A stretch of DNA of 64,000 nt from a virus (Duplodnaviria; Caudoviricetes), in the IMG/VR virus record IMGVR_UViG_3300043093_000048, positions 192,001-256,000 of that record; one strand, 5' to 3'. Positions 2,903-36,900 of this stretch are shown piece after piece. A program made the position numbers and the translations under genes. Under the pieces are notes generated by a model. The model had not been told where the DNA came from and searched no databases. It was given only the letters and a program-made list of their open reading frames with translations. Within the stretch, counting starts at the first letter, position 1, and each line of letters opens with the position of its first letter.

Positions 2903-2956
2903 AATTTTATTACTCCTTTAATAAAAAATATTTTTTGTAGTTTATCAATCTAACTA

Positions 2957-2976: not shown

Positions 2977-3020
2977 ATAGTTGGTTTTAAAATTTTTTAA
3001 TTTATAGTTGGTATAAATTT

Positions 3021-4127: not shown

Positions 4128-4142
4128 CTCCTATTTAGTATT

Positions 4143-4154
4143 TAAATAATAGTT
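4143..4154 (-). promoter_or_regulatory. Putative late-class promoter AACT-N6-TA
   Basis: AACT-ATTATT-TA directly upstream of the RBS of 3021..4127. Confidence 0.45.
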
Positions 4155-4171
4155 TTCTAATTATAAAAAAT

Positions 4172-4204
4172 AAAAATTCCCTAAGACTTATTAAGTCTTA
4201 GGGG
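4172..4204 (-). terminator. Intrinsic terminator of the RNAP beta gene
   Basis: CCCTAAGACTT/AAGTCTTAGGG stem plus an A run. Confidence 0.8.
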
Positions 4205-4209
4205 TTTAT

Positions 4210-5616: not shown

Positions 5617-5961
5617 CATTTTATAATTGGACTATATCTTCATCACTAAATGATGCCTTCCATTTCGGGTAAACCATAAAACCCTACTCTACTCACTTCG
5701 TGTAAATATTTCAATTTACCTTATTTTTAACTAGTTTATACTAGTATATTAGCTTTCGATAGTCTCTGAACTCATATCCTATCTTAGTAGGATACTTCGC
5801 TGCATCGATTGGACTTTAAAACTTAATCTTTTTACTATACCTAAGTCTGTTAAACTTCGCCACTAAGTATATTGCTATCTTAGTTTAGTAATTAAGTTCG
5901 TTTAGTCTTTCCTGCAATTAGGAAGGTTTATTTTTACAATGTCAACAAAGCTTACTTGATA

Positions 5962-6960: not shown

Positions 6961-6987
6961 ATTCGTTCACACTCCAAAATAATAGTA

Positions 6988-6999
6988 TAAAATTTAGTT
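6988..6999 (-). promoter_or_regulatory. Putative late-class promoter inside intron 2
   Basis: AACT-AAATTT-TA upstream of the endonuclease RBS; a second match AACT-TAAAAA-TA lies just upstream. Confidence 0.45.
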
Positions 7000-7035
7000 C
7001 ATTATATTTTTAAGTTTATGGTTTTTAGGGTGGCT

Positions 7036-7089
7036 ATTGACATTGATACCAGCAAGTCCCTTCATTGAAGCTGTACCCATTCTCTCTAA
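7036..7089 (-). CDS. rpoB: RNAP beta N-part, exon 2 (54-nt micro-exon LERMGTASMKGLAGINVN)
   Basis: NPSLE+LERMGTASMKG+LAGI aligns without gaps to bacterial beta [20 protein letters not shown]. Absent from the ORF track. Confidence 0.85.
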
Positions 7090-7463
7090 CAATTATTACT
7101 AATTGGACTATATCATCTTCTATAATAATTTATAGAAGCCTTGCACTTCGGACATATATTATATCCTACTCTACTCACTTCGTGTAAATATTTCAATTTA
7201 CCTTATTTTTAACTAGTTTATACTAGTATATTAGCTTTCGATAGTCTCTGAACGTTCTTCATTTTATTATGAAGCTTCGCTGCTAGATTTCCCATTATTA
7301 CAATACTTAGATTTTCATCATATATCAATTTAATTATTTTTTCCGTCTTTCGACTGCATTCACACTTATCTTTACAGATTATGTTGTAGCTAATTAAATA
7401 TTAGGGTTTACAAGCAATTCACAAGGTTATCATACATTATTACTAATATATGAGAGCTAATTA
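7090..7463 (-). mobile_element. Group I intron 1 (ORF-less, about 374 nt; boundary ambiguous by 1 nt)
   Basis: GAAUUGCUUGUAAA, AAUCUAGCAGC, GUUCAGAGACUA, GAUAUAGUCC; P1 GAGU/GCUC; P9 CAAUUA-GUAA-UAAUUG. Confidence 0.88.
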
Positions 7464-10196
7464 CTCAAGAGATGGGTTTAAACTTGAATAAGATTCAATT
7501 GTTTTTAATTCCATTAATTTCTTAGTTAAAATATCTGGATCAACAGTTATCTTGACTGGGTTTTTAGCATGTTTAGAATCTTTATAATGCTTAAATGAAT
7601 CAGCTAATACTTTATAAAGCATAGCAGGTACTTGTTCTGCACCACGAATTCTAAAGTTATTTACATCAGTTGGTTCAGAGAAAGAAATATCTTCTAATAA
7701 TGTATTAGCATATAATAAAACATCATAAACATTAGTAGGTAAATTTAATTCTTCTAGTATATCTTTAGTAATAGGATCTATTAATAAAGAAATTGAGTTA
7801 TGAAATCCCTTTGCAGCATTTCTTGAATTAAACGCATCACCAAAATAATCAATATAAGGATCTGGTGAATTCATATCTGCAAACACTATCTCAGAACAGT
7901 TCATTTCTAATAAACCTGAAAGAAGCATACTGTTTCTTATCTTAGAAGTATCATAATAAAGATAACCATCTTTAAATTTAATTTTACCTAAATCATCTTG
8001 TACACTTAAAGATCTATTGGTAGTTTCAAAAGTATACATGACTTTATATCTATCTAATAAATTTAATAATCCTAATTCATATCCTAATAAAACAGCTAAT
8101 GGAAGTGTTTTATTATTAATTTCCATTCTAGAATATGTTAATTTGATATTAGTTTTAATTTTAGCAGAAGTAATATCTTTAACTTTTTCAGTTGTATTAT
8201 TATAAACTAATTCAACAATCCATGAAGATAAAGTAATATCTAATGGCTCATATTTACTACCATTATATAAATAAATCTTTTTATCAATAATATTTGATAA
8301 AATTAATTTACTTTTATCTTTAGTATACCCTACCATGAAATATTCTTTTTTATCAAAAGTTGCTTTAACAGCAATTTTTTCATTATATAAAGGTTTCTTA
8401 ATATCCATAATATCTTGGATTTCTTGTTGATTAAAAATAAATATATAGTTTTCAATATTTAAACTATATAAATAAGATGAAATATCATTATATTCAGAAC
8501 TTACAGTATATTTACCATTATTCTTTAACGAATTACCAAATTTAAAATCAAAATTAGAACCTTGTTTTTTATATTTTAAAAGATTCTGCTTAGTAAATAA
8601 AGATTTTAAATAAGTAAGCTTTTCACTAAATTTCTGTCCAAATCTTGTTATAAAGTGCTTATTATAGTTTGTAGTAATTTGAACTCTATCTGGTTCTAAT
8701 TTAACAATTGGTAAGAAAACTATCTGTTTCATAATTACCTTTTTAGAACCATTTACATACATAAATTTACCTTCTTTAATTTCTGGCATATTTACTTTAA
8801 ATTTATGCGTAACATTAGTATCATCTTTAAATTCTACTTCAAGGAGCTGTTGCTTGTTCATATCAGTATTATTAGATTTTAAATTAATCTTATTAACATA
8901 TACACCAATATCATTATCATCATTAAATGATTTAAGAACCTTTGCAACATCTTTATTAAATTTTTTTTCCATATAAGTATCATCATAATCTTTTAATGTA
9001 CTTGTAAGGATTTCTTTATTAGTAACGTCTTTAATATTACCATCAGATATTTCTTTAGTATCTATTTTTTTATTTTCATAATTTTCTTTAAGATCTTTTA
9101 AAGAAACATCATTAAACATAATTTTTTCTTGTTGTATTTTTAATTGTTCTGCATTTTTTCTACGATCCCCATCTAATTTATCCTGCTGAACTTTTATTAA
9201 AGTATCTTTAAAAGCTTTATCATTAGTCATTAATTCCATCATTTGTTCTTCAGTCATATCAGTATCTTGATATTCATCAACAACTTCTTCAATCTTTTTA
9301 TCTACTTCAGAAATATTGTCATCATCTTCATTAACAGAAATACCAATTTCTTCAGCCATTTTTTCTTTAATATTATTTTTAGTAATTTCTTTTTCATCAG
9401 CTATAGCATTCTTTGAATTAACTTTTTCTATAAAATTACTTGAAGGAGTATTATTAGATACTTCATTTGTTTCAATACCTTCTTCAGATTTTATAACTTC
9501 TTCTAATTCATCAGAGCTTAATAATAAATGATTAATTCTAATATTGAATTTTTGTTTATTTTTATAAAAATCATCATCTACTGTAAATTTAAAGAATGTT
9601 TTATTCTTAGCTGATAAGAATATAAATTGTACTCCTTTAAAATACTCTAAGAAATAGTCAACTCTTTTCTTAATTGCAGTTACAAAGTAATAAAGAAAAC
9701 TTGTATTATCAGTAGCATCCATTCCATCTACATTAAATACAATAGCTTTATAATCATATTTAAATTCATTATATTTAACATTAATTTCATCAAAGAAATC
9801 TTTCATTTTTACTAAAGGACTCTTTTTAGTAGATTCTTGATTAATTAATAAATAAGGTGTCATATCATAAAATAAATTAAGATTTTTATAACTACTTATA
9901 TTTTGTCTACAAAGTAAATTATAATTTACTTTTTCTAAGAACTCTTTATAATGATTTGACTGATTAACCATTTTTCTTATTTTTTTATTATCTGAAACTA
10001 ATAATCTTTCTCTATAATAGCTTTTATAATAAGCTGGCATAAATATATTTGAATTAATAGTCTCTATAAAATTTTCACTAGTTTTACCAATATGTAGAAT
10101 TAATTGATTCTTTCTTAATTCTTTATTCTCACTTGATAAATTTTTAATAGGCTTCTTTATAAGTTTATAATCTTTATATTTATCTAAAACTATCAT
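7464..10196 (-). CDS. rpoB: RNAP beta N-part, exon 1 (spliced product about 1397 aa, with N-terminal extension)
   Basis: KVNMPEIKEGKFMYVNGSKKVIMKQ, DVNNFRIRGAE (compare DHLGNRRIRSVGE), ends SSLNPSLE at the intron; AGGAGG RBS. Confidence 0.88.
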
Positions 10197-12882: not shown

Positions 12883-15800
12883 ATGGCTGGTTATAAATCT
12901 AGTAAAGAATTGTTAGACAAAGGAAAAAACAATTTAAAAGAAATGTCTGGACAAAATAAAGATTTAAATGAAACTATCGCTAGTTATTCTGAAGAGGAAA
13001 CAAGATTAAATGCTCCTACAAGTTCTAGAATGCAAGCAATAGCTGTTAGTGAAAAATTTATAAGTTCATTACAAGAAACTTCATCTTTAATAGAACAAAC
13101 TAATTCTAGTTTAGTTGGTTTTAAAAGTGCTTTAGAAGGTGTTGCGTCACAAGCTACAACAGCTACAAATTGTTTATTAGCTTCTAACTTAGTAAGCTTA
13201 ACTCAAATTAATAGTGTATTAAGTGCTTTTAGAGCGGATTTCTTAATAAATAGCTCTGGCGGAAAAGCTGATGGTACAGGTTATTATGATAAAAATCTTT
13301 TAACACAATCTTTAAGAGATATTAAAATACAAGATAGGGCTGTATTATCAATATTAAAGTATGTAAATAAAGCTGCTAATTATGCTAATAAATCTTCAAA
13401 TACTGTTAGAAGCCAACTTGGTAATAATACTATGGCTAAAGATGATGATGAATCAAATGGTATTATGGATAAACTACTTGGTGGTTTAACACAAGCAAAA
13501 GGTCTTGCAGGTTTAGGAGCATTTCTACAATTAGCTCCAGGAAAAGGAAAGGTTGGTAAAGCTTTAAATAAAATAGGTGGTAAAGCTGCTAATTTTGCAC
13601 AAGCTGATACATCTAGTATAGGTGGATTACTTGAATCATTAATGTCTGATAAACAAAAAGCACAAATTTTAGATCCTTTAAAATCTCTTGGTATGGATTT
13701 AGGTAATAAAAATGACCCTTTAAGCCAAATGCTCGGAGATTTTATGAAAAAGAATGGTCTTTCTAAATCTAAAAAAGAAAAAGAAAAAGACCCTAAATTA
13801 GTAATGACATCATTAGCTCCTTTTGCAGATGATATTAAAGATATGGTTGAAGTAAAAGTAAAAGCTATGCATGCTAGACCAACTTCAATACCTGATTATG
13901 CAACTCCTGTATGGGTTGTTAATAGTGAAGAACAAACAGACTATGTAAAAAATAAAGATAAAACTAAAGATAAAGAATTAACTAATAAAAGAATTGATGA
14001 AATATTCCAAGGTGTCGCCAATAATACTAAAGATAAATTTGGTAATGATTTATTAACTGCTAACTATGGAGAAAATGGTGTTACATACTCTGGCGTATTA
14101 GCTGATAAATATAGTAAGGGTAAAAAAGCTGTTAATGCTAGAAATGAATTAAATGATAAACAAAAAGCATCACAGAAAAAAGTTTATGACAGAAACCATG
14201 AAGATTCTAGTTGGGTTGATGAAAATGGTAAAATACAAAAAGGTGGAGGAGATTTTAAACAAGCAGCTGAAGAATTTAGTAAAAGCAGAGGTGCTGCTGA
14301 TAACTCTGGTATTTTAGGAGCTGCAGGTAGTTTATTAAGCGGTGATACTGAAGGAGCTTTAAATGTAGCATTACAAAGTATAATGAGCGGTGATGGTATC
14401 TCTGGTGCTTTTGGATATGGTAAAGGTTTATTTAATTTAGGAAAATCTGCTTTTGGTGGCATTAAAGGTTCACATAAAGGTGGTAAAAAGAAAGGAACTG
14501 GTAGTAAACCATATTTAGTACAAGTTCATGATAATGAAAGAATTCTTGGACCAGATAATGTAGCTGAACAAACAGCAATAAATGATACATCTAAAATACT
14601 CGGTATGACAATTGGTATGTTAAACTATGGTATTTCATTAACACAAATGAAAAATCAGTTATTTATTAAATATGTCAATAAAGAGAAATTTTCTCCTGAA
14701 GAATTACAAACTAATAATGAATTATTAGGTGCAGATGCTATTGCACAAATAGGTAAAGTATCTGATGCTTCTGAATATTTAAGAACTATTTCAGATTTAA
14801 AACAAAAATTATCTGGTAAGAAACAAGATAGACAGCTTGCAGAAAGACTAGATGATGGAAAACAAGAAAAAAAGAAATCTTTAAAAGATATAGTTAAAGA
14901 AAAATTAAAAGATGCTGAAAAAAAATTAAAAGATAAAGTTCAAGACTTCTTAGGTCTAAAAGAGGAAGAGGAGAAAAAAGATAAAGAAGATAAAGAGAAA
15001 AAAGTAGATGAGAAAAAAGATGAAATAGACCAACAATCTGATGCAGAAGTCTCTGAATATCAAGAAGAAAAAGCACAAGAAGTAGAAGATCAAAAAGAAG
15101 AAGCTGAAAAAAATGCACAAGCACAAGTTGCTGCAAATCAAGAAAAAATAGATCAACAAGTAGAAGATCAAGAAAAAGCACAAGAACAAGAAGGACAAGC
15201 ACAAGTTGCTGCAAACCAAGAAAGAATAAATCAAGAAGTTAAGCAAAAAATTGAAGAAGATAATGAAAATGCTGAAGAAAAAAAGAAAATAATTGATAAA
15301 TATGAAAATAAAATTAATGAAGTTGAGAAAAAAAGTAAAATGAAAGCTTTAAAAATAAAAATTAAAGGAACTAAAAAAGCATTAAAAGAAAAAATGAAAG
15401 GTGTTAAAGAAGCTTTTGATCTTTCGATGTTAGCTAATATTGATTTAAGTAATCTTAGTATTGATGGTATAAAAGAAATAATAAAAGATAAAATAAATGA
15501 TATTAAAAGAAGTTTAATAAATAAATTAAAAGCAAAAGCTAAAATTATTCTTAAAAGTTTAACAAAGAAAAATCTTATAGAAACTTTAAAAACTGAAAAG
15601 ACTAATTTACTTGAACGTATTAAAGGTATGGCTCATAATGCATCCGATATTATAGAAACTATTGGTACTGGTATGGGTGCAGCAGTAGATGCTTTAGAAG
15701 CAGTTCCTATAGCAGGTCCAGCCTTAAAATTAGCAGCAGGTATTGCCGCAGGTACAGCAGTTGCAGGAATTGGTTTAGCAATTAAAAAAGCTATTGATAA

Positions 15801-18800
15801 AGGTAAAGAAGCTAATGTAAATGCAGATAAAGAAACTAAAAAATTTGAAAAGACAGCAGATAAAGAAAAAAAGAAAGCAGAAAAAGAACAAGAGAAAAAA
15901 GATAAAGAAAAAGAAAAAGAAGAAAATTCTAAAGCTAAAGCTTCAACAACTCAAGAAAAAGAAAAAGATGATAAAGATATAGATAAAACTAAAGATGAAT
16001 TAGATAAATTTAAAACTGATGATGAAAAAAATGGAAAAGCTAAACCTCATAAAAAAGGTGGTTTATTAGGTGCTTTGCTTGGTGGACCAAAAAATGATTT
16101 ATTACATTATTTAAATAAAAATCAAATAAAAGCTTTAGAAACAGGTTCTAAAAGCAAATTTGCTAATTTAATGCTAAAAGATCCTAAAAAAGCAGCAAAT
16201 ATTATATTTATGCTTAATGGTGGACCAATGCTTTTAGGGTTTAAAGATACTAAAACAGAAGATTTAAATAATCTTGAGAGTGTTACAGCTACCAATTCTA
16301 ATTCAAACTCTAGTTCTAGTAGTAAAAATACTATTTGGTCTAAATTAAAAAATAAACTTAGTCAAAAGAAATTACTTTCTGATGATTTAAGTGATGAAGG
16401 ATATTCTGAGAATATTGATACTGCTGCTTTACAATATGAACAAACTAAAAATAGTGCTAATATAATTTCTGCTTTTGCTAGTGGATTAGGTTTTGCAAAA
16501 TTAGAAGATGACTCAGGAACTTCACTATTTACAACAACTATTAGAAAAACAGCACAGCAAGAAGCTTTAACTAAAAACTTAGGAACAGCAACTGCTGCTT
16601 CTACAACTTCAACTGGTACTACTGCTGCTTCTACAACTTCAACTGATGATGATAGTAGCTCTTCAGACAATCGATTTAATGGTAGTAAATATATTGGCTA
16701 TGATGAAGATGGTACTTGGAGTAATAGTACTACTAATAGTGATATTGATAGTAGTGGTTATTTTTCTAAAAGTAATTCTTCATCGTCAAAAACTTTAGTT
16801 ACAAAAATATTAAATAATAACTGGCTTAAATATAAAAATGATAATAATATAACTGATAGTACAACAACTAATGGTAGTTCTTACCCTAGAAAATTTTTAA
16901 ATTCTGAATATGATAAAATGTATACTGCATTTATTAGTGGTGTTCCTTTTAGTGGAACAACTTCTAAAAATTATATGCATTCTAAATTAGCAAGTTCTAT
17001 TAGTGAATCAGATGCTTGGACTGTTCCAGATTCTATTAAAAACTCAGATACAGAAAAAAATGCTGTAAGAGATTATATAAATAAAAAATCTGGAGTTAAA
17101 TATACTAAATATGGTTTAGGTATTTCTGGGTTATATGGATTAGGTGATGAAAATGATGAAGACTTCTTAGATGCTTCAGGATATGCTCTTTCTAAAGGTT
17201 ACAAAGAAAAAGATGGTGGTACTTATCCTCAATTTTTTACTGACTATCTTAAAAAAGATAATATCGAAGTAGAAAATGCTGGAAGTGTTAATAAAATAAA
17301 AAATAGATTAGCTAGTGGTAGTCCAGTAATTCTTATGGGTAAAGATGAATCAGAAAACGGTACAACTCCTTATGGAGCAGAACCTCACTATGTAGTAGCT
17401 ACTGGATATGATGGTAAAAATATTAGAGTAGTTGACTCTGAAAGTACTAATGATTATGATATTTATAATGCTGATAAAGTATTAAGTCATTCATCAATTA
17501 AATTAGGAACTACTAATAGTAAAAAAGGTAAAGGAAGAAAAGTTAGAAGTAAATCTGGAAGAGCTAGAAAAACTTCAAAAAATAAAAAATATGATAATAA
17601 AAGAACAGTTGGTGGTTCTAGAACATATAGTACAACTATAATAAAATCTGCTTCTGATTACGGTACTTCAAGTTCTTCAAAAATTTCTAATAATTATTCA
17701 AAACAAAATAATTCTTCTAGAAGAGTTAGTAATAATAGAAGAAAGAGTTATTTAAAATCAGGAAAAGGAAAATATGGAAGAGGTTATGTTGAACAAATTA
17801 ATGCAAATCCAGAATTATTAAAAGGTGCTCAAGATGGTTGGACTATGTATGGTATCTTAGCATCAGTAACATTAGCACAGTCTATTATTGAATCTGGTTT
17901 TGGTACTTCTAATTTAGCAAAGAATTATCATAACTGGTTTGGACATACTGCTGGATTTGCTAGTGATAAATATATGACTGGTACATATCAAGGATCACAT
18001 GAATGGGCTGTATATGCTTCTGATGGCGACTGCTTTAGAGACCATGCTTATGTATTATCTGGTCAATCAGGTAATACTAGATACATGGCTGCAGTAGGCG
18101 AAGCAGATCCTAGAGCTTCTATTACAGCAATTGAAAATGGTGGTTATTGCGAAGGTGATCCAAATTCTTATATTGATAAAGTAATGAATATTATTGATAG
18201 TTATAATTTAACTCAATTTGATGTAGGCGAGTATAATGGTGTTGCAGCAGGCAGTGGAGCAGTAGTTTATTCTAAGACTTGTTGGACTGGTGACTCACGT
18301 ACAGAACAAATGGCTAATTACTTTAGTGATTTAGAAGTATATGCTACAAAAGGTGGACAAACTATTGATTACTTTAATCAACACTATTCAGAAATTTCTG
18401 ATAAAGAAGGCTATAATATTTTCTGTTGGTATGGTGTAAATGGTGCAACAGCATCTGGAGCACAAAAGACAGCAGAAGCTTATAATAAATTAGCTACTGA
18501 CTTAAAAGGTAAGTCACAAGTATTCGCTGGTACAATCGGTCATTGTCCCAATGGTACAGGAAGTGGTAAAGTAGAAGGCGGTGCAGGGCAATCTATTGAA
18601 ACACAAAATGAAGGTGTTGTTACATTCAATACTGAATTATTACAGAATCTTTCAAGTGATATTATAGTTATTGATACTTATACTTATATTAAAAGTCTTG
18701 AAGATAGTATGGGTGCAGAAGCTATGACTACAGATAACTTACATTATACTAAAGAATGTAGTCAAAAAATTAGAGAATATGTAAATCAACAAATTCAAGC

Positions 18801-19488
18801 AGCTTCAGCAACTGCAACTACGGCTACTTCAGATGCAGGTGTTGCTATTGGTGATTTATATGTAACATTAGAAGGTTATGTTGATGCTAAAGATGTTTTA
18901 TCACAATATGCTTCTGGAGATGATATATGGGATGGCGTTTCATCTTATAATTATGCGGATAGCTCGGATTATACATCTACCGCTGCTGCAAATTATGATC
19001 CAACAAGTAGTAGTGAAGATGACGAAACATCTACTGCAACTCCAACAGCTTCTAGCAGTTCTTCATCTACACCAACATCTAGTAGTACACCTTCTTCTAG
19101 TGATAGCACTTCTAGTTCTACTAGTAGTAGTACTCCATCATCTAGTAGTACACCTTCTTCTAGCGGTAGTACTTCTGGTTCTACTAATAATCCTACTACA
19201 ACAACCACTACTACAACTCCAACAGTATCTACGCCAACTGATAGCAATACATCTACAGAAATATATCAAAGTAATGGTACATTATATGTAGTAAATAATA
19301 TTGAATATGGAATTAAAGCTAATATAGCAGATATTCTAAAAGAATTTAATGAATTAAATGACATACAAGATGATAGCTTAGATATATTAAATGTAATATA
19401 TCAAAAATTATTAAAACGTAATGGAAAAAGTAAAAATACAAAAATTGATGGTTATGACTATTCTTTAAAGTATAGAAGATTCGTATAA
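12883..19488 (+). CDS. Giant tail-associated lysin A (tape-measure-like N-part; C39 His half; GH73 glucosaminidase; SGNH hydrolase)
   Basis: SGSPVILMG..PHYVVATGYDG (C39-like); LASVTLAQSIIESGFG..HNWFG (GH73); WTGDSRT..GVN..TDNLHY (SGNH); S/T linkers. Confidence 0.8.
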   Translation: MAGYKSSKELLDKGKNNLKEMSGQNKDLNETIASYSEEETRLNAPTSSRMQAIAVSEKFISSLQETSSLIEQTNSSLVGFKSALEGVASQATTATNCLLASNLVSLTQINSVLSAFRADFLINSSGGKADGTGYYDKNLLTQSLRDIKIQDRAVLSILKYVNKAANYANKSSNTVRSQLGNNTMAKDDDESNGIMDKLLGGLTQAKGLAGLGAFLQLAPGKGKVGKALNKIGGKAANFAQADTSSIGGLLESLMSDKQKAQILDPLKSLGMDLGNKNDPLSQMLGDFMKKNGLSKSKKEKEKDPKLVMTSLAPFADDIKDMVEVKVKAMHARPTSIPDYATPVWVVNSEEQTDYVKNKDKTKDKELTNKRIDEIFQGVANNTKDKFGNDLLTANYGENGVTYSGVLADKYSKGKKAVNARNELNDKQKASQKKVYDRNHEDSSWVDENGKIQKGGGDFKQAAEEFSKSRGAADNSGILGAAGSLLSGDTEGALNVALQSIMSGDGISGAFGYGKGLFNLGKSAFGGIKGSHKGGKKKGTGSKPYLVQVHDNERILGPDNVAEQTAINDTSKILGMTIGMLNYGISLTQMKNQLFIKYVNKEKFSPEELQTNNELLGADAIAQIGKVSDASEYLRTISDLKQKLSGKKQDRQLAERLDDGKQEKKKSLKDIVKEKLKDAEKKLKDKVQDFLGLKEEEEKKDKEDKEKKVDEKKDEIDQQSDAEVSEYQEEKAQEVEDQKEEAEKNAQAQVAANQEKIDQQVEDQEKAQEQEGQAQVAANQERINQEVKQKIEEDNENAEEKKKIIDKYENKINEVEKKSKMKALKIKIKGTKKALKEKMKGVKEAFDLSMLANIDLSNLSIDGIKEIIKDKINDIKRSLINKLKAKAKIILKSLTKKNLIETLKTEKTNLLERIKGMAHNASDIIETIGTGMGAAVDALEAVPIAGPALKLAAGIAAGTAVAGIGLAIKKAIDKGKEANVNADKETKKFEKTADKEKKKAEKEQEKKDKEKEKEENSKAKASTTQEKEKDDKDIDKTKDELDKFKTDDEKNGKAKPHKKGGLLGALLGGPKNDLLHYLNKNQIKALETGSKSKFANLMLKDPKKAANIIFMLNGGPMLLGFKDTKTEDLNNLESVTATNSNSNSSSSSKNTIWSKLKNKLSQKKLLSDDLSDEGYSENIDTAALQYEQTKNSANIISAFASGLGFAKLEDDSGTSLFTTTIRKTAQQEALTKNLGTATAASTTSTGTTAASTTSTDDDSSSSDNRFNGSKYIGYDEDGTWSNSTTNSDIDSSGYFSKSNSSSSKTLVTKILNNNWLKYKNDNNITDSTTTNGSSYPRKFLNSEYDKMYTAFISGVPFSGTTSKNYMHSKLASSISESDAWTVPDSIKNSDTEKNAVRDYINKKSGVKYTKYGLGISGLYGLGDENDEDFLDASGYALSKGYKEKDGGTYPQFFTDYLKKDNIEVENAGSVNKIKNRLASGSPVILMGKDESENGTTPYGAEPHYVVATGYDGKNIRVVDSESTNDYDIYNADKVLSHSSIKLGTTNSKKGKGRKVRSKSGRARKTSKNKKYDNKRTVGGSRTYSTTIIKSASDYGTSSSSKISNNYSKQNNSSRRVSNNRRKSYLKSGKGKYGRGYVEQINANPELLKGAQDGWTMYGILASVTLAQSIIESGFGTSNLAKNYHNWFGHTAGFASDKYMTGTYQGSHEWAVYASDGDCFRDHAYVLSGQSGNTRYMAAVGEADPRASITAIENGGYCEGDPNSYIDKVMNIIDSYNLTQFDVGEYNGVAAGSGAVVYSKTCWTGDSRTEQMANYFSDLEVYATKGGQTIDYFNQHYSEISDKEGYNIFCWYGVNGATASGAQKTAEAYNKLATDLKGKSQVFAGTIGHCPNGTGSGKVEGGAGQSIETQNEGVVTFNTELLQNLSSDIIVIDTYTYIKSLEDSMGAEAMTTDNLHYTKECSQKIREYVNQQIQAASATATTATSDAGVAIGDLYVTLEGYVDAKDVLSQYASGDDIWDGVSSYNYADSSDYTSTAAANYDPTSSSEDDETSTATPTASSSSSSTPTSSSTPSSSDSTSSSTSSSTPSSSSTPSSSGSTSGSTNNPTTTTTTTTPTVSTPTDSNTSTEIYQSNGTLYVVNNIEYGIKANIADILKEFNELNDIQDDSLDILNVIYQKLLKRNGKSKNTKIDGYDYSLKYRRFV
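13480..13683 (+). repeat. 204-nt direct repeat, copy 1 (copy 2 at 20146..20349)
   Basis: Identical by eye (GGTGGTTTAACACAAGCA...GATCCTTTAAAA), inside a roughly 1.3 kb paralogous region. Confidence 0.9.
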
Positions 19489-19512
19489 TTATTGAGATAG
19501 GAGTGATAAGAT

Positions 19513-22500
19513 ATGGCAAATATGAAATCTTCAAAACAGACAGCTAATCAAGCTACTAACAATCTTGATCCAAATATGAGTAAAATAGCTGAGCAAACAA
19601 GTGCTATAGCATCAAGCTTATCTCAACAAAGTAGTTCGATTCAAGCTTTAAAAGATTCTATATCTAGAAAAGAAGCTAGTGATGAAAAATCTAATAAACA
19701 AATTACTTCATCATTACAAAATTCTGATAAATATATACTTTCTATTAATACTAATTTAAAAAATATGAATCAAACAATAAGCTCTATGTCAAGTGTTGTA
19801 TCTAATATGACAATGAATAGTAGTGCTACAGTATCATTGTTAGGTTCTATTCAAACAAGTTTAGTACAAATTACAAGCGTATTAGCAGCTTTTAGATCAG
19901 ATTATTTATTAGTAAGTAGTGGTAATAAAGCAGATGGTACAGGTTATTATGATATGAACCTCTTAAAAGAAATTGGCAGTTCTTTAAGAGGTGTTAAAAG
20001 TGCTGAATTACAAAGACAAATTAGTTCAATTATTAAAGCTGCTAATTATGCTAATATGGCTTCTAATTCCGTTAGAAGTAAGCTTGGTAATAAAAATATG
20101 GCTAAAGATGGTGATGAACCAACAGGTGCTATAGATAAATTATTAGGTGGTTTAACACAAGCAAAAGGTCTTGCAGGTTTAGGAGCATTTCTACAATTAG
20201 CTCCAGGAAAAGGAAAGGTTGGTAAAGCTTTAAATAAAATAGGTGGTAAAGCTGCTAATTTTGCACAAGCTGATACATCTAGTATAGGTGGATTACTTGA
20301 ATCATTAATGTCTGATAAACAAAAAGCACAAATTTTAGATCCTTTAAAAAGTTTAGGAATGGACTTAAAAGGTAAAAATGATCCTTTAAGCCAAATGCTT
20401 GCTTCTTTTATGGATAAAAATGGATTATCAAAAGATAAAAAAGAAAAAGAAAAAGATCCTAATCTAGTTTGGTCGGCTTTAGCTCCTTTTGCAGATGATA
20501 TTAAAGATATGGTTGAAATGTCTTATGAAGGAGTTAAAAAAAGACCTAAAGCTATTCCTATATATGCTACACCTGTATGGGTGGTTAATAGTAAAGATCA
20601 AAATAATTATGTAGATCATTCTAAAGGAACTAATGAAAAAGATTTACTTAATAAAAGAATTGATGAAATATTCCAAGGTGTTGCTAATAATACTAAAGAT
20701 AAATTTGGTAATGATTTATTATCCATTAACCAAGGTGATAATGGTACAACATACTCTGGCGTATTAGCTGATAAATATAGTAAGGGTAAAAAAGCTGTTA
20801 ATGCTAGAAATGAATTAAATGATAAAAGAAATGCTGCTAATAAAAAAGTTTATGATAGAAATCATGAAGACTCTAGTTGGGTTGATGAAAATGGTAAAAT
20901 ACAAAAAGGTGGAGGAGATTTTAAACAAGCAACTGAAGAATTTAGCGGTATTAATGGTGCAGCAGGCAATTCTGGTATTTTAGGTGCAGCTGGTAGTTTA
21001 TTAAGTGGCGATACTGAAGGAGCTTTGAATGTAGCATTACAAAGTATAATGAGTGGTGATGGTATCTCTGGTGCTTTTGGTTACGGTAAAGGTTTATTTA
21101 AAATGGGAAAAGCTGCTTTTGGTGGCATTAAAGGTTCACATAAAGGTGGTAAAAAAGGTAAAGGTGTAGATCCACGTAAAAAAAATGATAAAAACTCTTA
21201 TGAAAATAGAGATGAAACTACTAATGAGCATGAAGTAACTCCTATTACTGCAGAAACTACTATTTTAAATGAAAAAGATACTAAAGAAGCTAAAACTAAT
21301 AGAGATATTTTAACAGGACAAATTACTGTAGCAGGTGCTATTAATGCTTTAGTAGATATGAGCACACAAGAAAATATTTATTTAAGTCAAGCTGTAAATG
21401 ATGGCAAAGTTGATCCAACTAAAGTTAAAAAATATCCAAGTTCTTTTGATAGTTTAATAAAATTAGCTTCTTCTTTAAAAATAGATAAAGCAGGTTTAAA
21501 AGCTATTAGTCAATTTAAAAAAGTTTCTGATTTAACTAAAGTTATTAAAAAACCTAAAAATAAAACTATGACAACTTCTGAATATTTTTATGGCAAAACT
21601 CCTGAAGAATTAGAAGAAGAAAATAATGAAAAAGAAGGAGAAGAAAAGAAAGAAACTCCACTCGAAAAACTTATGAATAAAATTAATGACAAGAAAAAAG
21701 ATATTACTGATAAATTAAAGGATAAAGTTACAGGTAAATTAAAAGATAAAGTTATGCCTAAAGCTAAAGAATTAGGAAAAAAAGTATTAAATAAAGTTGA
21801 GAATAAGTTTGGAATGGCAGCAGGATCTGTAGGTAAAAAAATTAAATCTATGAAAGATATGAAAAAAAATTTTGAGGATAAAGTAGATAAAAAAGTAGAT
21901 GCTGCTCTTGATAAAGGTATGGATTTAGCTGCAAAAGGTGCTAAAAAAGTTGGTGGTGCTTTAGTAGGTCTTGGTAAAAAAATGGCTAATAAAATGAAAA
22001 AGAAAAAAGACCCAAATGCCGAACTTGAGAAAATGTATGAAGACCAATTAAAAGCTAAACAAGATGTTGGTGAAAAAGAAAAGGAAGCTGCAGAATATGC
22101 AGTAGCTAAAGAAAAGGAAGCTGCAGAAGATGCAGCAGCTAAAGAAAAAGAAACAGCACAGGAAATATCGGATGAAGAAAAGAAGGCTGCAGAAGAAAGA
22201 GAAAAAACTAGAAAAGAAAATGAAGAAAAGCTTAAAGAAAAAAGAGAACAAGCACAGAAACAAGAAATAGAACATGAACAAGCTGCTGCAGATGCTGAAC
22301 TAGCAGTTAAAACAACAACTGCTGAAACTGAAGGAGCAGTTCAAGAAGCTGCTGCTACTGGTGAATCTGGTTTTAGTATTACTGGTGCTATTAAAAATGC
22401 TATAACAAAAGTTTCTGGTTTGCCATTGCCTGCTAAAATAGCATTAGGTGCTGCTGGTGTTGCTGCAGTAGGTGCTTTAGGAGCAAAGTTAATTAAGAAA

Positions 22501-25500
22501 ATTAAAAAAATGGCATCAGGCAAAGGTGGAAAAGGTTCTGGAGATTCTGGTGGCAGTGAAGCAAAAGCTTCAGTTAGTAAAGATGCTACAAAAGCTGCTA
22601 AAAAAGAACAAAAGAAACAAGAAAAAGAACAAAAGAAACAAGAAAGAAAAGAAAAAAGAGAAAAAGCTAAAAAGAAAATAAAAAGAGGTGCAAGATCTTT
22701 TCTTAATAGATTAACTGGTGGATTAACTGCTGCAAAAGTTTATGTAGATGAAAATGGTGATGTTTTAAAATCTAAAGGTGACGAACCAATCATGATGTTA
22801 GATGATAATGGCGATGAAACAGACCAAACTTTAAATGTTAAAGATAGTGATGGTAAAAAGCAGTTTCTTAAAAGATTAATGAAAAGAGAATTTAAAATAG
22901 ATAAAGGTAAAGCTCTTAAACAAGCTTTAAATAAAATTAAAAATAAAGCTAAAGAAAAAATAGAAGCTGCTAAAGAAAAAATATCTGAAGGTAAAGAAAA
23001 TGCTAAATCTTCTTTAAAAAAAGGTCTTGGAATTGCAGGAAAAATAGGTCTTGGATTAATAGGTGGTCCAGGTGCTTTAATTGCAGGTGGTTTAGCTAAA
23101 AAAGCTATTGGTGGATTAACTAAAAAGAAAAATGAAAAAGCCGATAAATTAAATCAATTATTATTAATGTCATCTTCTGCTTATTTATTCATGGATTCTA
23201 AACTTCAAGAACAATTAGAAAATATTGAAAATAGTGATTTTGGTAAATTAATAAATGAAAATCCACAACAAGCTTCTAGCTTATTATTTAGTACTGCTGC
23301 AAGTAGTCTTAATAGTATAATTAGTGGTGTATCAGATGTTACAAGTGATTTATCGTCTGTTGTAAGTAGCTTAGTCGATAAGGTTACTGGTGATGATGAA
23401 GAAACTAAAGCTAAGTCTGCATATTCTTCAGACTTATCGGATGGCTCTTTCAGTGAAAGTGCTACAGTTGCTTATGCACAGATGAATGAACGTAATAATA
23501 ATAATGAAGTATTAAACTCTTTTGCTAAAAGTATAGTCGGAACAGCTTCTACTGCTAGTGATAATGGTAATGCAATGACTACTTCTAAATTAGTTAATTC
23601 AGAAAGAAAAAATAATGCTGTAAAAATTGGTGTAGTAGATGGTGTGGCAGGAAGTTCAGCAACAGCTTCTAGCGGTAATGGTGGTGCAGGTGTCTTAGCT
23701 GCAACAGCTCAAGTCTGTGTAGCTTATAACAACGCAGGTATTACTGGTAAAGAAGGTGACTATAATCAAGATGGCTTAACCCTTGATATTAATGTTGGTG
23801 GGCAAACTATTAATACTAGACCTGACTGTACTGGTTTGATTGATGCTGTACTTGAATATATGGGTTATGATTCTGAAAAAATGAATTCTCTTAAATTTAA
23901 AGAATGCTCAGGTATTAAAGACTCTTCTGGTAATATTTCTACAGACTGGACTCTTATTGATAGCCCTGAATTAACTGATATTCAAGCAGGCGATATTTGT
24001 ATCGTAAATAGTAATGGTAATCACCATGGTGAAATTGCTGCTGGTCCTATTGATGATAGTGGTACATTATATGGATTTAACTATGGTTGGGAAACAGGTA
24101 TGAAAAGATCAAATGCTGCTGCAGCAGAAGCTTTAGCAGGCACTGATTATTTAACTGCTTGTATTAACAATAGTTCTACAATTAATGGACATAAATATTA
24201 TGACCGTATTATTAGATATAATGTTGCTACAACTACTAACTCTAATTCATCTTCTTCTGCTTCTGTATCAGCAGGTATGTCAGCTGATACATTCTTTATT
24301 AATGATTTAGGATTAGATTCTTCTAATCCAACATCTAGAGGATTCTCTGCACATAAAGGTACTGACTATAGAGCAGCTTCTGGTACAGCAGTTCATACAC
24401 CAACAGGTGGTACTGTTGTTAAAGCTACTAAGGATCAAGCATCTATTTCATCATCTATGGGTAGATATGTAATAATTAAAGATAATGATGGTAACTATTG
24501 GAGATATATGCATTTTAGCGCTATACCTTCTGTTGCTACTGGAGATAGTTTAACACCTGGTCAACTTATTGGTTATTCAGGTGGAGATACTAGTGACCCT
24601 TATAGAGGTGATTCTACTGGAGCACATCTTCACGTAGACTTATCATCATCAAGCACAGTTGATGGCAAGAATAATAATATGATGGATGTACAAAAGTATA
24701 CTTTAACTGGTAAAGGTAGATCAAGTAATAATCATATTTATCAAAGAGATTATTCTAATTATATTTATAATACCGATAAAGACTCTGAATTACAAACATT
24801 AGGTGACTCTGGTTGTGGACCTGCTGCAGCAACTGCTGTTAAAAGATATTATGTCGGAAGAGGTCTTAAGAAGTATGGTGGAGATAAAGAAGATGATACA
24901 ACTACAACTGATACAACAACAGCAACTGCTTCTGAAGATACAACTGATACAAATACTGCAACAGATAGTACAGCAGATGCATCTACAACACAAAAAACTG
25001 CAACTGTTGGTGAATCAGTAACAGTTGTTGATGAGAAATTTAATCATACTTATGAATTAACTTTACAACAATGTCATATAGATGTATGGAATGGAATAAA
25101 AGCTGCAGGACTTACTGACGAAGCTGCTTGTGGTGTTTTAGGTAACTTTCTATCAGAATGTGGTAGCGGTGACTGGAACGAAGAAGTTGCTAAAGGTAAA
25201 ACAGGTTATGGCGGTGGTCTTATGCAATGGACTCCTTATACTAAGCACCAAAATTGGTGTACTTCAAATGGTTATAGTGGTAAAGATACTACAATGGAAG
25301 CAAATATAGCTCATGTCGTTTATGCTTTACAAAATGAAGGTAACTTCTCAAATCCAGCAAGTGCTGATCCTTCTTTAGCTTCACAAGGTTATAATCCTGT
25401 AAGTTCTTATGAAGAATTTAAAGCTTTAACTAGTGTAGAAGATGCAGCAGTTAACTATGAAAGAATTTACGAAGTATCATATAACTGGAATGGTAAAACT

Positions 25501-26508
25501 AGCGAAAATGCACATGCTCTTGAAGATTGGGAAATGTATGATAGACCTAGAGTATATCACGCTATATGTTTCTATAATTTACTCTGTGGTACATATAAAG
25601 GCGGTACAACATCAGGTTCTACTTCTGCTGTTTCAGGAAATCTTGGTTTAACTGGTTATATTAATTTAATTACAGATAGCGCAGTTGATGGTTCTTCATT
25701 ATCTAGCTATTTATCTGGTTCTAATATCTGGGATACATCTTCAAGTTCATCTTCAGATAGTAGTGATGGTAGTACAGATAGTAGTACAACTTCAACTGAT
25801 AGTAATTCATCTTCAGGGTCTGGTAGAGGAAAACGAAGATTTGCTAGAAGTCATAAAAGAAATGGAAAAGGTAAATATGGTTTTGGTATTACAAGTGAAG
25901 ATTCAGTAGGATTTGCTAATACACACTTCGTTGCAGCAGGTAGTGATGATGATTCTTCAACAGATAGCACAACTTCTTCAAGTAGTTCTTCTAGTGATAG
26001 TTCTTCATCAGCATCTCCTTCAAGTAGTTCTTCTTCAAGCAGTAGTAGCTCATCATTAAATAATACATCAAGCAGTAGTACAAATTCATCTAATAATAAT
26101 AGTAGTAGTTCTTCAAGTAGTAGTACTCCTTCTACAAATTCATCTAATAGTTCTTCATTAAGTGCAACAATAGATTCTTATATTAAAAATAAAATGACAC
26201 TAACTGATGTAGATAGTAATGGTAATAAATCTTCAACTACTAATATATATACTAGTGATAATAAAACTACTTTAACAACTAATGGTAAAACTACTATAGT
26301 AATTTGTAATAATTTTGCTGAAAAATCAACAACTGATTTAAGTAATATATTAACTAATTTTAAACGTTTAAATGGAACACAAAACAATGCATTAAAAGTA
26401 TTAAACGCTATTTCAGATTTAATTAAAGAAGAAAATACTAGCGAAGATGGAATAACTAAATTAAGATTAGATAATGATGGATTAGATTATATATTAAAAG
26501 GATTATAA
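19513..26508 (+). CDS. Giant tail-associated lysin B, paralog of A (NlpC/P60-CHAP-like amidase; M23 peptidase; C39 Cys half; phage tail lysozyme)
   Basis: RPDCTGLI..GDICIV..HHGEI; HKGTDY..YMHF..STGAHLH; TLGDSGCGPAAA; LTDEAACGVLGNFLSECG..GLMQWT. Confidence 0.8.
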   Translation: MANMKSSKQTANQATNNLDPNMSKIAEQTSAIASSLSQQSSSIQALKDSISRKEASDEKSNKQITSSLQNSDKYILSINTNLKNMNQTISSMSSVVSNMTMNSSATVSLLGSIQTSLVQITSVLAAFRSDYLLVSSGNKADGTGYYDMNLLKEIGSSLRGVKSAELQRQISSIIKAANYANMASNSVRSKLGNKNMAKDGDEPTGAIDKLLGGLTQAKGLAGLGAFLQLAPGKGKVGKALNKIGGKAANFAQADTSSIGGLLESLMSDKQKAQILDPLKSLGMDLKGKNDPLSQMLASFMDKNGLSKDKKEKEKDPNLVWSALAPFADDIKDMVEMSYEGVKKRPKAIPIYATPVWVVNSKDQNNYVDHSKGTNEKDLLNKRIDEIFQGVANNTKDKFGNDLLSINQGDNGTTYSGVLADKYSKGKKAVNARNELNDKRNAANKKVYDRNHEDSSWVDENGKIQKGGGDFKQATEEFSGINGAAGNSGILGAAGSLLSGDTEGALNVALQSIMSGDGISGAFGYGKGLFKMGKAAFGGIKGSHKGGKKGKGVDPRKKNDKNSYENRDETTNEHEVTPITAETTILNEKDTKEAKTNRDILTGQITVAGAINALVDMSTQENIYLSQAVNDGKVDPTKVKKYPSSFDSLIKLASSLKIDKAGLKAISQFKKVSDLTKVIKKPKNKTMTTSEYFYGKTPEELEEENNEKEGEEKKETPLEKLMNKINDKKKDITDKLKDKVTGKLKDKVMPKAKELGKKVLNKVENKFGMAAGSVGKKIKSMKDMKKNFEDKVDKKVDAALDKGMDLAAKGAKKVGGALVGLGKKMANKMKKKKDPNAELEKMYEDQLKAKQDVGEKEKEAAEYAVAKEKEAAEDAAAKEKETAQEISDEEKKAAEEREKTRKENEEKLKEKREQAQKQEIEHEQAAADAELAVKTTTAETEGAVQEAAATGESGFSITGAIKNAITKVSGLPLPAKIALGAAGVAAVGALGAKLIKKIKKMASGKGGKGSGDSGGSEAKASVSKDATKAAKKEQKKQEKEQKKQERKEKREKAKKKIKRGARSFLNRLTGGLTAAKVYVDENGDVLKSKGDEPIMMLDDNGDETDQTLNVKDSDGKKQFLKRLMKREFKIDKGKALKQALNKIKNKAKEKIEAAKEKISEGKENAKSSLKKGLGIAGKIGLGLIGGPGALIAGGLAKKAIGGLTKKKNEKADKLNQLLLMSSSAYLFMDSKLQEQLENIENSDFGKLINENPQQASSLLFSTAASSLNSIISGVSDVTSDLSSVVSSLVDKVTGDDEETKAKSAYSSDLSDGSFSESATVAYAQMNERNNNNEVLNSFAKSIVGTASTASDNGNAMTTSKLVNSERKNNAVKIGVVDGVAGSSATASSGNGGAGVLAATAQVCVAYNNAGITGKEGDYNQDGLTLDINVGGQTINTRPDCTGLIDAVLEYMGYDSEKMNSLKFKECSGIKDSSGNISTDWTLIDSPELTDIQAGDICIVNSNGNHHGEIAAGPIDDSGTLYGFNYGWETGMKRSNAAAAEALAGTDYLTACINNSSTINGHKYYDRIIRYNVATTTNSNSSSSASVSAGMSADTFFINDLGLDSSNPTSRGFSAHKGTDYRAASGTAVHTPTGGTVVKATKDQASISSSMGRYVIIKDNDGNYWRYMHFSAIPSVATGDSLTPGQLIGYSGGDTSDPYRGDSTGAHLHVDLSSSSTVDGKNNNMMDVQKYTLTGKGRSSNNHIYQRDYSNYIYNTDKDSELQTLGDSGCGPAAATAVKRYYVGRGLKKYGGDKEDDTTTTDTTTATASEDTTDTNTATDSTADASTTQKTATVGESVTVVDEKFNHTYELTLQQCHIDVWNGIKAAGLTDEAACGVLGNFLSECGSGDWNEEVAKGKTGYGGGLMQWTPYTKHQNWCTSNGYSGKDTTMEANIAHVVYALQNEGNFSNPASADPSLASQGYNPVSSYEEFKALTSVEDAAVNYERIYEVSYNWNGKTSENAHALEDWEMYDRPRVYHAICFYNLLCGTYKGGTTSGSTSAVSGNLGLTGYINLITDSAVDGSSLSSYLSGSNIWDTSSSSSSDSSDGSTDSSTTSTDSNSSSGSGRGKRRFARSHKRNGKGKYGFGITSEDSVGFANTHFVAAGSDDDSSTDSTTSSSSSSSDSSSSASPSSSSSSSSSSSSLNNTSSSSTNSSNNNSSSSSSSSTPSTNSSNSSSLSATIDSYIKNKMTLTDVDSNGNKSSTTNIYTSDNKTTLTTNGKTTIVICNNFAEKSTTDLSNILTNFKRLNGTQNNALKVLNAISDLIKEENTSEDGITKLRLDNDGLDYILKGL
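20146..20349 (+). repeat. 204-nt direct repeat, copy 2
   Basis: Matches 13480..13683. Confidence 0.9.
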
Positions 26509-33987: not shown

Positions 33988-36900
33988 TTACTTAATAAAA
34001 TCTATATTAGTTGAAATATTTTCTTTTGTTGTTGAGCTTAAATCAATTTCTCTAATACCGCCAGCAAATGAAATTCTAACTAAGTTATTTGAAATTACAG
34101 TATTTTTTAATAAGTCATTATAAATATCATGTAAATTATATATTGTATTATTAAATGTAAATTCTTTATCTTCAACATTTAAAGTATCATAATAATCTTC
34201 AGCTAAAATAGTTACTGTATCTGAGAATGAACGATAACCTTTCTTTTCATTTTCTTTCATCCAACCATTAACTCTATAACCTACAATTTTATTGGCAGTA
34301 CTATCATAAATAACGCCAAATAATCTATAAATAAATGAGAATCTATTTAAGCTAGACGTTTTAAGTTTATCATCATTTTCTTTACTAATTATTATATTAG
34401 TTGTAGCATTAGGGATTGTTCTAAATTGATTTGTATTAGTATATTTTTCATTATAGTCATATACATTTCTAATATTAATATAATAATTACTATCTTTATT
34501 AGTTATATCACAATCTTTTAAGAATATAGTATTAGTGTCTTTTAATAAATAGTTATCTTCGCTATCTGTAAAATCTTTTATAGGATAATTTGCGGAAATA
34601 TCATATAATGTTATACCATTATAATTCTCTGCATTAAATCTACCTCTAGGATTTTCCATACCTAACATTCCATAAGCAATACAACCAAATCCGTCTAATT
34701 GATAGGAAGTAGCATAATTTAAAACTGAAGGCGTTAAAGGCTTTGAAGTATTATCTTTATTTACTAATTCATTAAAATCACTTTCATTTAAACTTAAAGT
34801 ACCACAAACATCATCTGGATCATCTGGATTCTTTTCAAATTTTCTACCTTCATAGAAATGACAGAAATTTTTATAATTGCTTTTATACTTTGAGTTTGCT
34901 AAATCTTCAAGTGTAGTATCTAATAATATTCTACTAGCTCCATTATATCCATATCGATACATATATGAAATATTATCTTTAAATATTGGATTATTAATTG
35001 AATTATCTACTACATCTGAAATTAATTCTTGAATAGTTTCATTAAATAAAGCAATTTTCTTACCAGATCTTTCATAATTAGACACATAATAACCTGTGTA
35101 ATCATCATTATCAAAATCTAAATTAAAATATTGATAACCATCAATAAAATTTCTAGAAGGAATTTCGTAATCAATATTATCTATATTTATATTTCTCATT
35201 TTACTTTTTACAGTAGCTTTAAATAGATATAAATTTTTATTTGCATATTCTGATTCATTATCACTAAATTTATTCTGATTAAATTTAATAATATTTAAAT
35301 CTTTAATATAATTTTTAAATATTTCTTTTTTAATATCATCATCATCTGTATAGTATCTATCAGGAAATGCATCTAAGCTTTCAGTTTTAGTTCTATGATA
35401 TTCATTCGTAGAAAATTTTGGTACATTTTCAGTACTACTTGGCAAATATTTTTCAACTTTTAAAGGATCTATATACCAATATTCATTAGATCTTTTTCTT
35501 TCATCGCTATAAGTGCTACCAGCTATTTTATTTTCATGTATAGTAGCTAATACGCTATCAATATTATTATAAGTATTTTTAGCTCTTAAATAAAGAGAAT
35601 TTAAAGGGTCACCATCATAAGTAAAATTATTGTCTGGATTAAAATCTTTTAAACTATAAATAGTAAATGTATAATTATTATCTTTTTCATAAGTGTTGTC
35701 ATTCTTTTTATATGTTTCTAAAGAATCAAAATAAAGTTCAGAATCATTCATTGTTAGAGTAAAATAGTTATTACCAGTAAAGTTATCATCTTTTTCATGT
35801 AAATATGGTAAATCACCAACTTTACTATATGGACTTTCTATACGTTTATTTGAAACAGTTGAGATATTTTTATATTTTTGTTTATTACCTCTTGCATTCC
35901 AGTTAATTTTCTTTCTAACTTCTTTAAATTCATCATTTGTTCCATGATATATTATATTAAATGCATCATTATAAATAATATCATTAATTTCAACTGCAAT
36001 AAGACTGTTCCAATTTACATATGGTTTATTTACATCATAGAATTTTTCAATATATTTTACATTATTATCTTCAATTGAAAAATCACTATCATCTTTTATT
36101 AATTCACCTAAATCAATAATATTATCTTCTGTATAGTCACTATCTATTGAGTATAAATGATTATTATTAATTCTTAATTTACCACAATTTATAAAGTTAT
36201 TATCTGAAATAATATATAATTTATTACCAAACTCAACATTTACTAAAGATATACAATTTTCACAAACTTTAGAAACATTAGAAGCAGTTGTTACCATTAC
36301 TTTTTCAGCATTATAACCAGAGTTAACATATTCTAAATAATAATCTTTAAATTTAGTTACCAATAATGTACTATCTTCTCCATTGTTATATATTTCAGGT
36401 TTTTCTTCTATAACACTTTCAATGTAATCTATATATTCATCATAGTCTGTATAACCATCTCTTTCATAGTATATATATTTAGGATCAATATAATAATCTT
36501 CACCATCTACTTCATCTTTATTTTCTTCATAAATATCAACCATTTTACCATGAAAATTTTTATCATCATGATTATAATATAACCAACCAGTTTTACAATT
36601 AACATAAATTGCATGGTTTCCTATATAAGTACCATTAAAGCAGCTAGTCATAATTTCATAAGCTTTTCCATCAATATTAACACGATAACCACTTTCAATA
36701 TCAGAATCTTTATAATAATAAGCAAGATATTTTTTATTATTATAATTTATTATAAAAGATTTAACTCTAGGATCAACATCCATAGAACTTTGAACGTTTT
36801 CTACAAAAAAGTTACCAAAATATATAACTTCTGGTAATAATAAATTCATTAATCTACTACAACCGGAAAAACAGCTATAACCTATTGCATAAGCATTGCC

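Follow-up and report, generated by a model that had tools for sequence, protein, structure and literature searches.

A C39-like cysteine peptidase domain that related jumbo phages encode in one piece was found divided between two tandem genes, designated A and B, in a window of 64,000 nucleotides of viral DNA. The window comprises bases 192001-256000 of a 265,109-bp IMG/VR virus genome (IMGVR_UViG_3300043093_000048; Caudoviricetes) that is graded complete by CheckV, with a guanine plus cytosine (GC) content of 21-35% in this genome region. Its source is an uncultivated jumbo phage, as judged from the 265,109-bp complete genome, the multisubunit RNA polymerase beta fragments and several giant open reading frames (ORFs). 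Both genes were identified from the ORF list and its translations and encode giant virion-type multi-lysin proteins, A (P0001) of 2201 amino acids (aa) at 12883..19488 and B (P0002) of 2331 aa at 19513..26508, both on the + strand. The split arose once, its two halves co-occur, both halves and all four catalytic positions are under constraint, and the halves give a confident co-fold model; we infer that the halves of A and B associate physically and are catalytically active.

The larger piece lies in A, where residues 1437-1520 match positions 56-142 of the 143-position Peptidase_C39_2 profile (PF13529) with an E value of 1.4e-8 (35.9 bits, cut-off 24). As delimited by this profile and a hidden Markov model (HMM) of the C-half, the C-terminal half-domain begins with helix 2 and extends through the whole beta core (A residues 1420-1545, 17140..17517, + strand). 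The N-terminal half, delimited by an N-half HMM and consisting of the Gln, a loop and the Cys helix, occupies B residues 1738-1786 (24724..24870, +). B gives a weak match to Peptidase_C39_2 from residue 1764 (profile positions 12-94, 16-17 bits, below the cut-off of 24, E 0.016), in which the real domain covers just the first ~45 positions; a Thr/Asp-rich linker read from the translation (residues 1790-1850, 24880..25062, +) then stands in place of the missing C-half. Thus A scores above the gathering cut-off, Gln and Cys are found in B and His and Asp in A, and the catalytic elements that a Peptidase_C39_2 domain holds in one chain are distributed over two genes.

Whole-protein scans of A and B with Pfam and PHROG reported no C39, and the domain emerged only in scans of fragments. 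When the N-half and C-half HMMs, built from relatives, were run against the whole 265,109-bp genome, each gave a single match, the former in B (24721-24867, E 5e-28) and the latter in A (17161-17523, E 1e-58), and a six-frame search of the genome with Peptidase_C39_2 returned the same two places only. These six-frame and half-domain HMM searches detected no complete C39-like domain in A, in B or elsewhere in the genome, ruling out a hidden complete domain or a second copy. A first-pass annotation of the window had assigned only the Cys-bearing part to lysin B and only the remainder to lysin A; the profile and half-domain searches agree with it, coordinates included, and the Peptidase_C39_2 search that it had proposed for both proteins found the complete domain in neither. 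Neither Peptidase C39 proper (PF03412) nor an ATP-binding cassette (ABC) domain was detected in A or B in the Pfam scans.

The catalytic residues could be placed by alignment, all codons being on the + strand. In A, the catalytic His1502 (17386..17388), within the motif PHYVVATG, corresponds to column H83 of the C-half alignment A2, and Asp1518 (17434..17436; column 99 of A2), the third member of the triad, lies 16 residues further on. In B, the catalytic Cys1768 (24814..24816), within GDSGCGP, corresponds to column C34 of the N-half alignment A1 and is preceded by 7 residues by Gln1761 (24793..24795; column Q27), the candidate oxyanion-hole residue. The first-pass annotation had stated that A carries no GCG upstream of its half, and indeed no cysteine is present between residues 97 and 1717 of A, which rules out a cryptic nucleophile there. 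By inspection, the break itself displays no intein-like blocks, B having only its T/D linker there and A only G-x-G linkers, and a split intein or protein splicing was rejected.

That A and B are in fact one chain, owing to a mis-join, a frameshift or readthrough, would be compatible with their shared reading frame in the window. However, the two tandem genes are set apart by several in-frame stop codons and an AGGAG ribosome-binding site, both ahead of the ATG of B, which rules out fusion by readthrough or frameshift, and the frames of A and B differ in the relative L003. Moreover, assemblies made independently from various samples and sources show the same arrangement, and the C-half is encoded upstream of the N-half, so that no fusion could restore the order of the domain. 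We therefore consider an assembly or annotation artefact barely conceivable.

Relatives were gathered by a word-index search with the A half-domain, a separate search with the B region and a scan of IMG/VR, followed by HMM classification of the loci. The A half-domain retrieved proteins of 1555-2234 aa with the C-half alone, as well as proteins of 3300-3670 aa with a B-like N-half directly ahead of the C-half, and the B region retrieved proteins of 1913-2527 aa that have M23, the N-half and lysozyme2 without the C-half. The IMG/VR scan yielded 57 loci on contigs mainly of 150-340 kb. As the first-pass annotation had suggested examining, intact forms do exist among the relatives and are the rule, since the whole domain, with its halves next to each other within a single ORF of 3000-5700 aa, is found in 52 related IMG/VR loci; intact relatives score 44-53 bits against Peptidase_C39_2 over profile positions 12-142. 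Halves in two genes occur only in the window, in L004 (identical to the window), in L003 (an ENA assembly obtained outside the scan), in L005 and L006, and in L061-L063. Seven distinct genomes carry both partners of the split form on one contig, with A upstream and B downstream in all of them, and P0007 and P0022 presumably make up an eighth A/B pair. An exhaustive profile search returned 3260 representative proteins at E <= 0.001, of which 415 also passed E <= 1e-30; among the best 150 matches, most are 3000-6000 aa long and nearly all cover the whole domain in one stretch.

Maximum-likelihood phylogeny of the domain groups the split set in one clade (support 98/92) nested among intact forms, with branch lengths of 0.2-0.38, close to the tree median of 0.22. 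Because of this nesting, the tree places the origin of the split in a single event, from an intact ancestor, after which the split persisted through substantial divergence. One member displays a further fission of the module string: in L062, a separate gene for a 360-aa glucosaminidase (13287-14369) lies between A and B, and A stops right after the C39 C-half. Extra partial C-half matches (E 5e-6 and 1e-10) were also observed in L034/L036 (ORF residues 4113-4180) and L049 (ORF residues 1419-1463), far from the complete domain, and may be second diverged or orphan half-domains. Among GenBank phages, tblastn found no relatives of the A/B giants, only generic lysin-domain matches. In that search, B residues 1602-1789 aligned with Microbacterium phage lysin A (e.g. 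MT498064 38000-38503) at 30-33% identity; as the alignments span M23 through the Cys-half region of B, Microbacterium phage endolysins may have a related Cys-helix element after an M23 module.

To the first-pass annotation, both half-motifs being intact had argued against simple decay. We compared the window proteins with their orthologues region by region (B, n = 7; A, n = 8) and found that each half is the best-conserved stretch in the C-terminal half of its own protein. Mean identity was 0.705 in the N-half of B (residues 1741-1784), compared to 0.37 in its M23 domain, 0.43 in its lysozyme2 domain and 0.20 in its linker; in A, it was 0.65 in the C-half, 0.16-0.18 in the flanks of the C-half and 0.12 in the glucosaminidase region. 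Comparison with intact-type giants gave a similar picture, the C-half being the sole segment of A detectable by BLASTP (42-54% identity) and the N-half the top match of B (47-64%, with the other lysin modules at 22-31%). Gln10, Gln27 and Cys34 are invariant in alignment A1 (16 sequences) and His83 in A2 (17 sequences), each including split and intact forms; at position 99 of A2, 16 sequences have Asp and the remaining one has Asn. In one B orthologue, GCG is replaced by GCA, with the Cys retained. Ratios of nonsynonymous to synonymous substitution (dN/dS, Nei-Gojobori method, NG86) were 0.2-0.7 in both halves, similar to lysozyme2.

It could be argued that both halves are decaying remnants of a domain that was rearranged and inactivated, given that neither half alone can be an enzyme and that the whole-protein Pfam scans miss both. 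Such decay is very improbable, and the alignments exclude it: the halves are islands of conservation (0.71 and 0.65) amid values of 0.12-0.43, across lineages only 31-60% identical in their N-terminal blocks, dN/dS is below 1 in all pairs, and the branches of the domain tree are not lengthened. The claim of the first-pass annotation holds as far as constraint on both halves is concerned, subject to a possible mild relaxation that we take up below.

A search of the PDB by sequence with the intact domain gave nothing significant; hence the fold was searched. The AlphaFold model of an intact relative (P0025, residues 2978-3156, 8-row alignment) had a mean predicted local distance difference test score (pLDDT) of 75, and in it the Cys starts a helix (34-45) that is followed by a loop and then by helix 2 (52-61). 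The gene-level break of the split clade falls exactly in this loop. Foldseek with this model listed the C39 domains of PCAT1 and ComA, papain-like toxins, the pseudomurein endoisopeptidase PeiR and the Bacillus anthracis C39-like protein 3erv, with E values of 4e-6 to 3e-4 and 13-22% identity; the haemolysin-type domain 3zua was also among its matches. The C39/papain-like fold was thus found on the intact relative; for the split pair, it is the co-fold model that bears on the fold.

For this co-fold, A residues 1420-1545 and B residues 1735-1790 were modelled together, each with its own alignment, alongside three controls. The two fragments, whose co-folding the first-pass annotation had put forward as a check, did co-fold, with an interface score (ipSAE, interaction prediction score from aligned errors) of 0.90 against 0.00 for the best of the three controls. 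Of 80 solved complexes, 58 reached this mark, as did 2 of 110 mismatched pairs; these counts are rough as own alignments were used. The runs share at least 86% of contacts, partner pLDDT is at least 75, and the interface includes residues 83-86 of chain 1 (His83-Val86, from A) and 32-47 of chain 2 (the Cys34 helix, from B). When B was modelled without its partner (N-half, linker and lysozyme2), pLDDT was 26-45 in the N-half, below 50 in the linker and 65-91 in lysozyme2, and the N-half was not placed against lysozyme2; cis packing of the N-half on the lysozyme2 domain of B thus found no support in this model, weak evidence given its 10-row alignment.

Taken together, we consider it probable that A and B reconstitute one peptidase non-covalently from their halves and that its activity needs both proteins. 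In the ancestor, a single giant protein would have contained the entire papain-fold, C39-like cysteine peptidase domain. Within one jumbo-phage clade, the gene would have been duplicated and the domain interrupted in the loop that joins the Cys-bearing helix to helix 2, with B retaining a ~50-residue piece that bears the oxyanion Gln and the nucleophile Cys, and A a ~125-residue piece with the beta core, the His and the Asp. The Cys helix of B would then dock non-covalently in a groove of the half-domain of A to rebuild one active site, and peptidase activity would require A and B in the same place. The AND-gate on activity that the first-pass annotation had envisaged may be a consequence of such a split.

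Two alternatives accept the conservation of the halves and differ in what it serves. In the first, the halves associate, but their joining serves purely structural heterodimerisation, holding A and B together, and the rebuilt site is not catalytic. The co-fold supports docking rather than chemistry, and the concerted N-terminal blocks of A and B described below would suit proteins that share one assembly. However, Gln, Cys, His and Asp/Asn are unchanged in every split-clade member examined, none of which a purely structural role would need, and inactive C39-like domains such as the haemolysin-type 3zua are known to have lost the Cys; we therefore judge this unlikely. In the second, the halves no longer meet and have acquired separate roles, for instance the C-half in binding and the N-half as a linear motif, a propeptide or a cleavage signal adjacent to M23. 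This would agree with the location of the halves deep in two different polypeptides of 2200-2300 aa and with the shortness of the N-half and its bordering G-x-G motifs. It is also improbable in our view, since two unrelated roles would have to preserve all four catalytic positions by chance, both halves are present in each of the seven genomes whose contig is long enough, and the model of B alone offers the N-half no partner in cis.

Several points count against reconstitution of an active enzyme. Binding and activity are read here from sequences and a model. Because the halves resemble solved C39 structures, a pass in co-folding is to be expected for halves of a known fold, and the model speaks for their mutual compatibility rather than for binding. 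The joint presence of A and B in the virion is argued from their paralogous N-termini and gene context. The NG86 ratios are weakly informative, dS being unreliable at 25% GC and at such divergence. In the split clade, the C39 halves are no better conserved than lysozyme2 (0.60 and 0.64 versus 0.60), whereas in the intact clades C39 is clearly better conserved (0.64 and 0.66 versus 0.41), which could reflect a mild relaxation of the halves after the split; both dN/dS and the identity ratios to lysozyme2 are too crude to prove or exclude it.

The N-terminal blocks of A and B shed light on the history of the pair. Residues 57-524 of A (13051..14454, +) and 62-536 of B (19696..21120, +) are paralogous, with 72% identity over 479 aa by BLASTP, and the remainder of the two proteins is unrelated except for a weak C-terminal match. 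The blocks of A and B are more alike within a genome (72% identity in the window, with values of 52, 58 and 43% among L003, L005 and L006) than are orthologous blocks from different split-clade genomes (31-60%). This within-genome likeness indicates concerted evolution and suggests gene conversion between the tandem paralogues; it would suit a pair of proteins with equivalent positions in a single assembly. The first-pass annotation had proposed a duplication after which each gene kept a complementary half. A single origin and the paralogous blocks fit this proposal. The block had no match in 4 of 4 sister intact genomes, so that the order of duplication and deletions is a putative one.

A and B are probably virion or tail proteins, as suggested by their lysin modules, by the likeness of the M23 module of B to yomI of the SPbeta group (38% identity), which some records label as tape measure, by the gene directly downstream, which matches the virion structural protein phrog_20401, and by a tail-tube gene near P0012, a single-gene homologue. 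Pfam, PHROG and further profile scans gave no match to tape-measure family HMMs in A or B.

With regard to the substrate, we lean tentatively to a peptide bond of peptidoglycan, which we slightly favour over self-processing, because the neighbours of the domain are lysin modules and C39-like modules have been reported in phage endolysins. A somewhat less likely possibility is that the enzyme cuts the A and B polyproteins themselves at [YF]-G-x-G module borders, an idea raised by these motifs, which occur at module borders and also, in intact domains, in the loop linking the Cys helix to helix 2. Motifs of the types [YF]-G-x-G and [YF]-G-[KR]-[GA] (KYGRG, KYGFG, YGLG, YGRA) lie at the module borders of A and B (17107-25887) and of P0012, P0013, P0020 and P0025, with a ~5-fold excess over shuffled sequence, and may be cleavage sites. 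Of 40 distinct intact domains, 14 (from loci including L015, L023, L028, L031, L033, L035, L039, L042, L043 and L053) also carry a border-type motif ([YFLM]-G-x-[GAS]: YGRG, YGKG, YGRA) in the Cys-helix/helix-2 loop, the very site at which the A/B clade is split. We speculate that the loop motif explains the position of the break, either through microhomology with the border motifs or because the loop was already cut in the mature enzyme. It is conceivable, though unlikely, that [YF]-G-[KR]-[GA] marks this peptidase's own sites, that the intact enzymes are auto-nicked two-chain proteases and that the split clade moved the nick to the level of the genes, so that formation of the maturation protease, and with it the release of lysin modules from both polyproteins, would await co-assembly of A and B.

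The remaining recognisable modules of the two proteins are a glucosaminidase domain in A (PF01832, residues 1649-1776, 17827..18210, +, E 2.4e-23) and, in B, a Peptidase_M23 domain (PF01551, residues 1613-1711, 24349..24645, +, E 1.9e-16) and a Phage_lysozyme2 domain (PF18013, residues 1857-1992, 25081..25488, +, E 1.4e-17). B residues ~1400-1567 (23700-24300) match no Pfam family and are 22-31% identical to parts of the intact giants L013 and L020; a Cys...His pattern seen by inspection, which recalls NlpC/P60, possibly marks a further unclassified peptidase module. Elsewhere in the window, fragments of an RNA polymerase beta subunit of the phage multisubunit type lie at 4210-5619 and 7461-10196 on the - strand (region 1178-10196), interspersed with three HNH/homing endonuclease ORFs (1178-2902, 3021-4127 and 5962-6960). 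Of two further giant ORFs, that at 33988-44496 (-, 3502 aa) has no Pfam match, and that at 46165-55008 (+, 2947 aa) contains a type I dockerin at residues 1185-1239, together with an EF-hand match below threshold (20.3 bits, cut-off 25.4); the dockerin hints at a Clostridia host bearing a cellulosome.

The closest known counterparts of the split domain are the intact modules of related jumbo-phage giants of 3000-6000 aa (e.g. P0012, P0013 and P0025; loci L007-L060), which are homologous to the halves (42-64% identity) and share the positions of Gln, Cys, His and Asp, the neighbours (M23, Phage_lysozyme2, glucosaminidase, NlpC/P60) and the [YF]-G-x-G borders. They differ in that the domain lies in one chain encoded by one gene, whereas the split form spreads it over two tandem paralogues, A and B, the C-half coming from the upstream gene. 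In structure, the best matches of the intact relative are the C39 domains of bacteriocin/peptide ABC exporters, namely PCAT1, ComA (PEP) and LahT-type double-glycine proteases (E 4e-6 to 1e-4, template modelling scores of 0.55-0.59). These exporter domains share the layout, with a Gln shortly before a Cys at the start of a helix, and a His and an Asp 16 residues on, as in the catalytic numbering of ComA. However, they are only 16-22% identical to the intact relative and single-chain, and A and B have no ABC transporter, no match to PF03412 and no recognisable double-glycine leader substrate; the border motifs of A and B resemble a Gly-Gly site but are not one. PeiR, another fold match, is likewise single-chain.

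Catalytic units assembled from separate polypeptides have precedents. In jumbo phages, the source of the window included, beta/beta' of the multisubunit RNA polymerase are split into several genes, and the flavivirus NS2B-NS3 protease is a two-chain enzyme that needs a cofactor strand. In contrast to both, the cut between A and B passes through a small compact papain-fold domain, between nucleophile and general base, and the pieces lie deep inside paralogues of 2200-2300 aa with their gene order permuted. With their M23, glucosaminidase and Phage_lysozyme2 modules, A and B may belong with the tape-measure-type or virion-associated peptidoglycan hydrolases such as SPbeta YomI/CwlP. Among phage lytic enzymes, a C39-like module is known as the N5 domain of mycobacteriophage LysA, one of the peptidoglycan hydrolase modules of phages (PMC3314691, Table 1), and gut-phage endolysins with the architecture Peptidase_C39_2-Phage_lysozyme2-NlpC/P60 have been described (PMC13284279). 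Such modules stand beside other hydrolase modules as in A and B, but are single-chain, and none is known to be split over two genes.

As kinds, the domain family, its occurrence in lytic proteins of phages and the giant multi-lysin proteins are already known. In the literature searched, coverage of which was incomplete, we found no description of a papain-fold domain split between two paralogous genes; what appears new is a catalytic domain of this fold divided between paralogues, with its order permuted, and conserved as such in a clade. The analysis also draws attention to the C39-like module, the seat of the strongest matches to the intact giants, in a large uncharacterised family of 3000-6000-aa jumbo-phage proteins (415 representative clusters at E <= 1e-30). 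Should the halves reconstitute, the pair would be a natural and evolutionarily stable split cysteine protease, its nucleophile and general base supplied by two giant proteins, and a clear case of complementary degeneration within one small catalytic domain. It would also offer protein engineering a ready-made natural split-protease pair of ~50 aa and ~125 aa. For the phage itself, it would constitute direct sequence evidence that A and B must meet in the virion or the host envelope.

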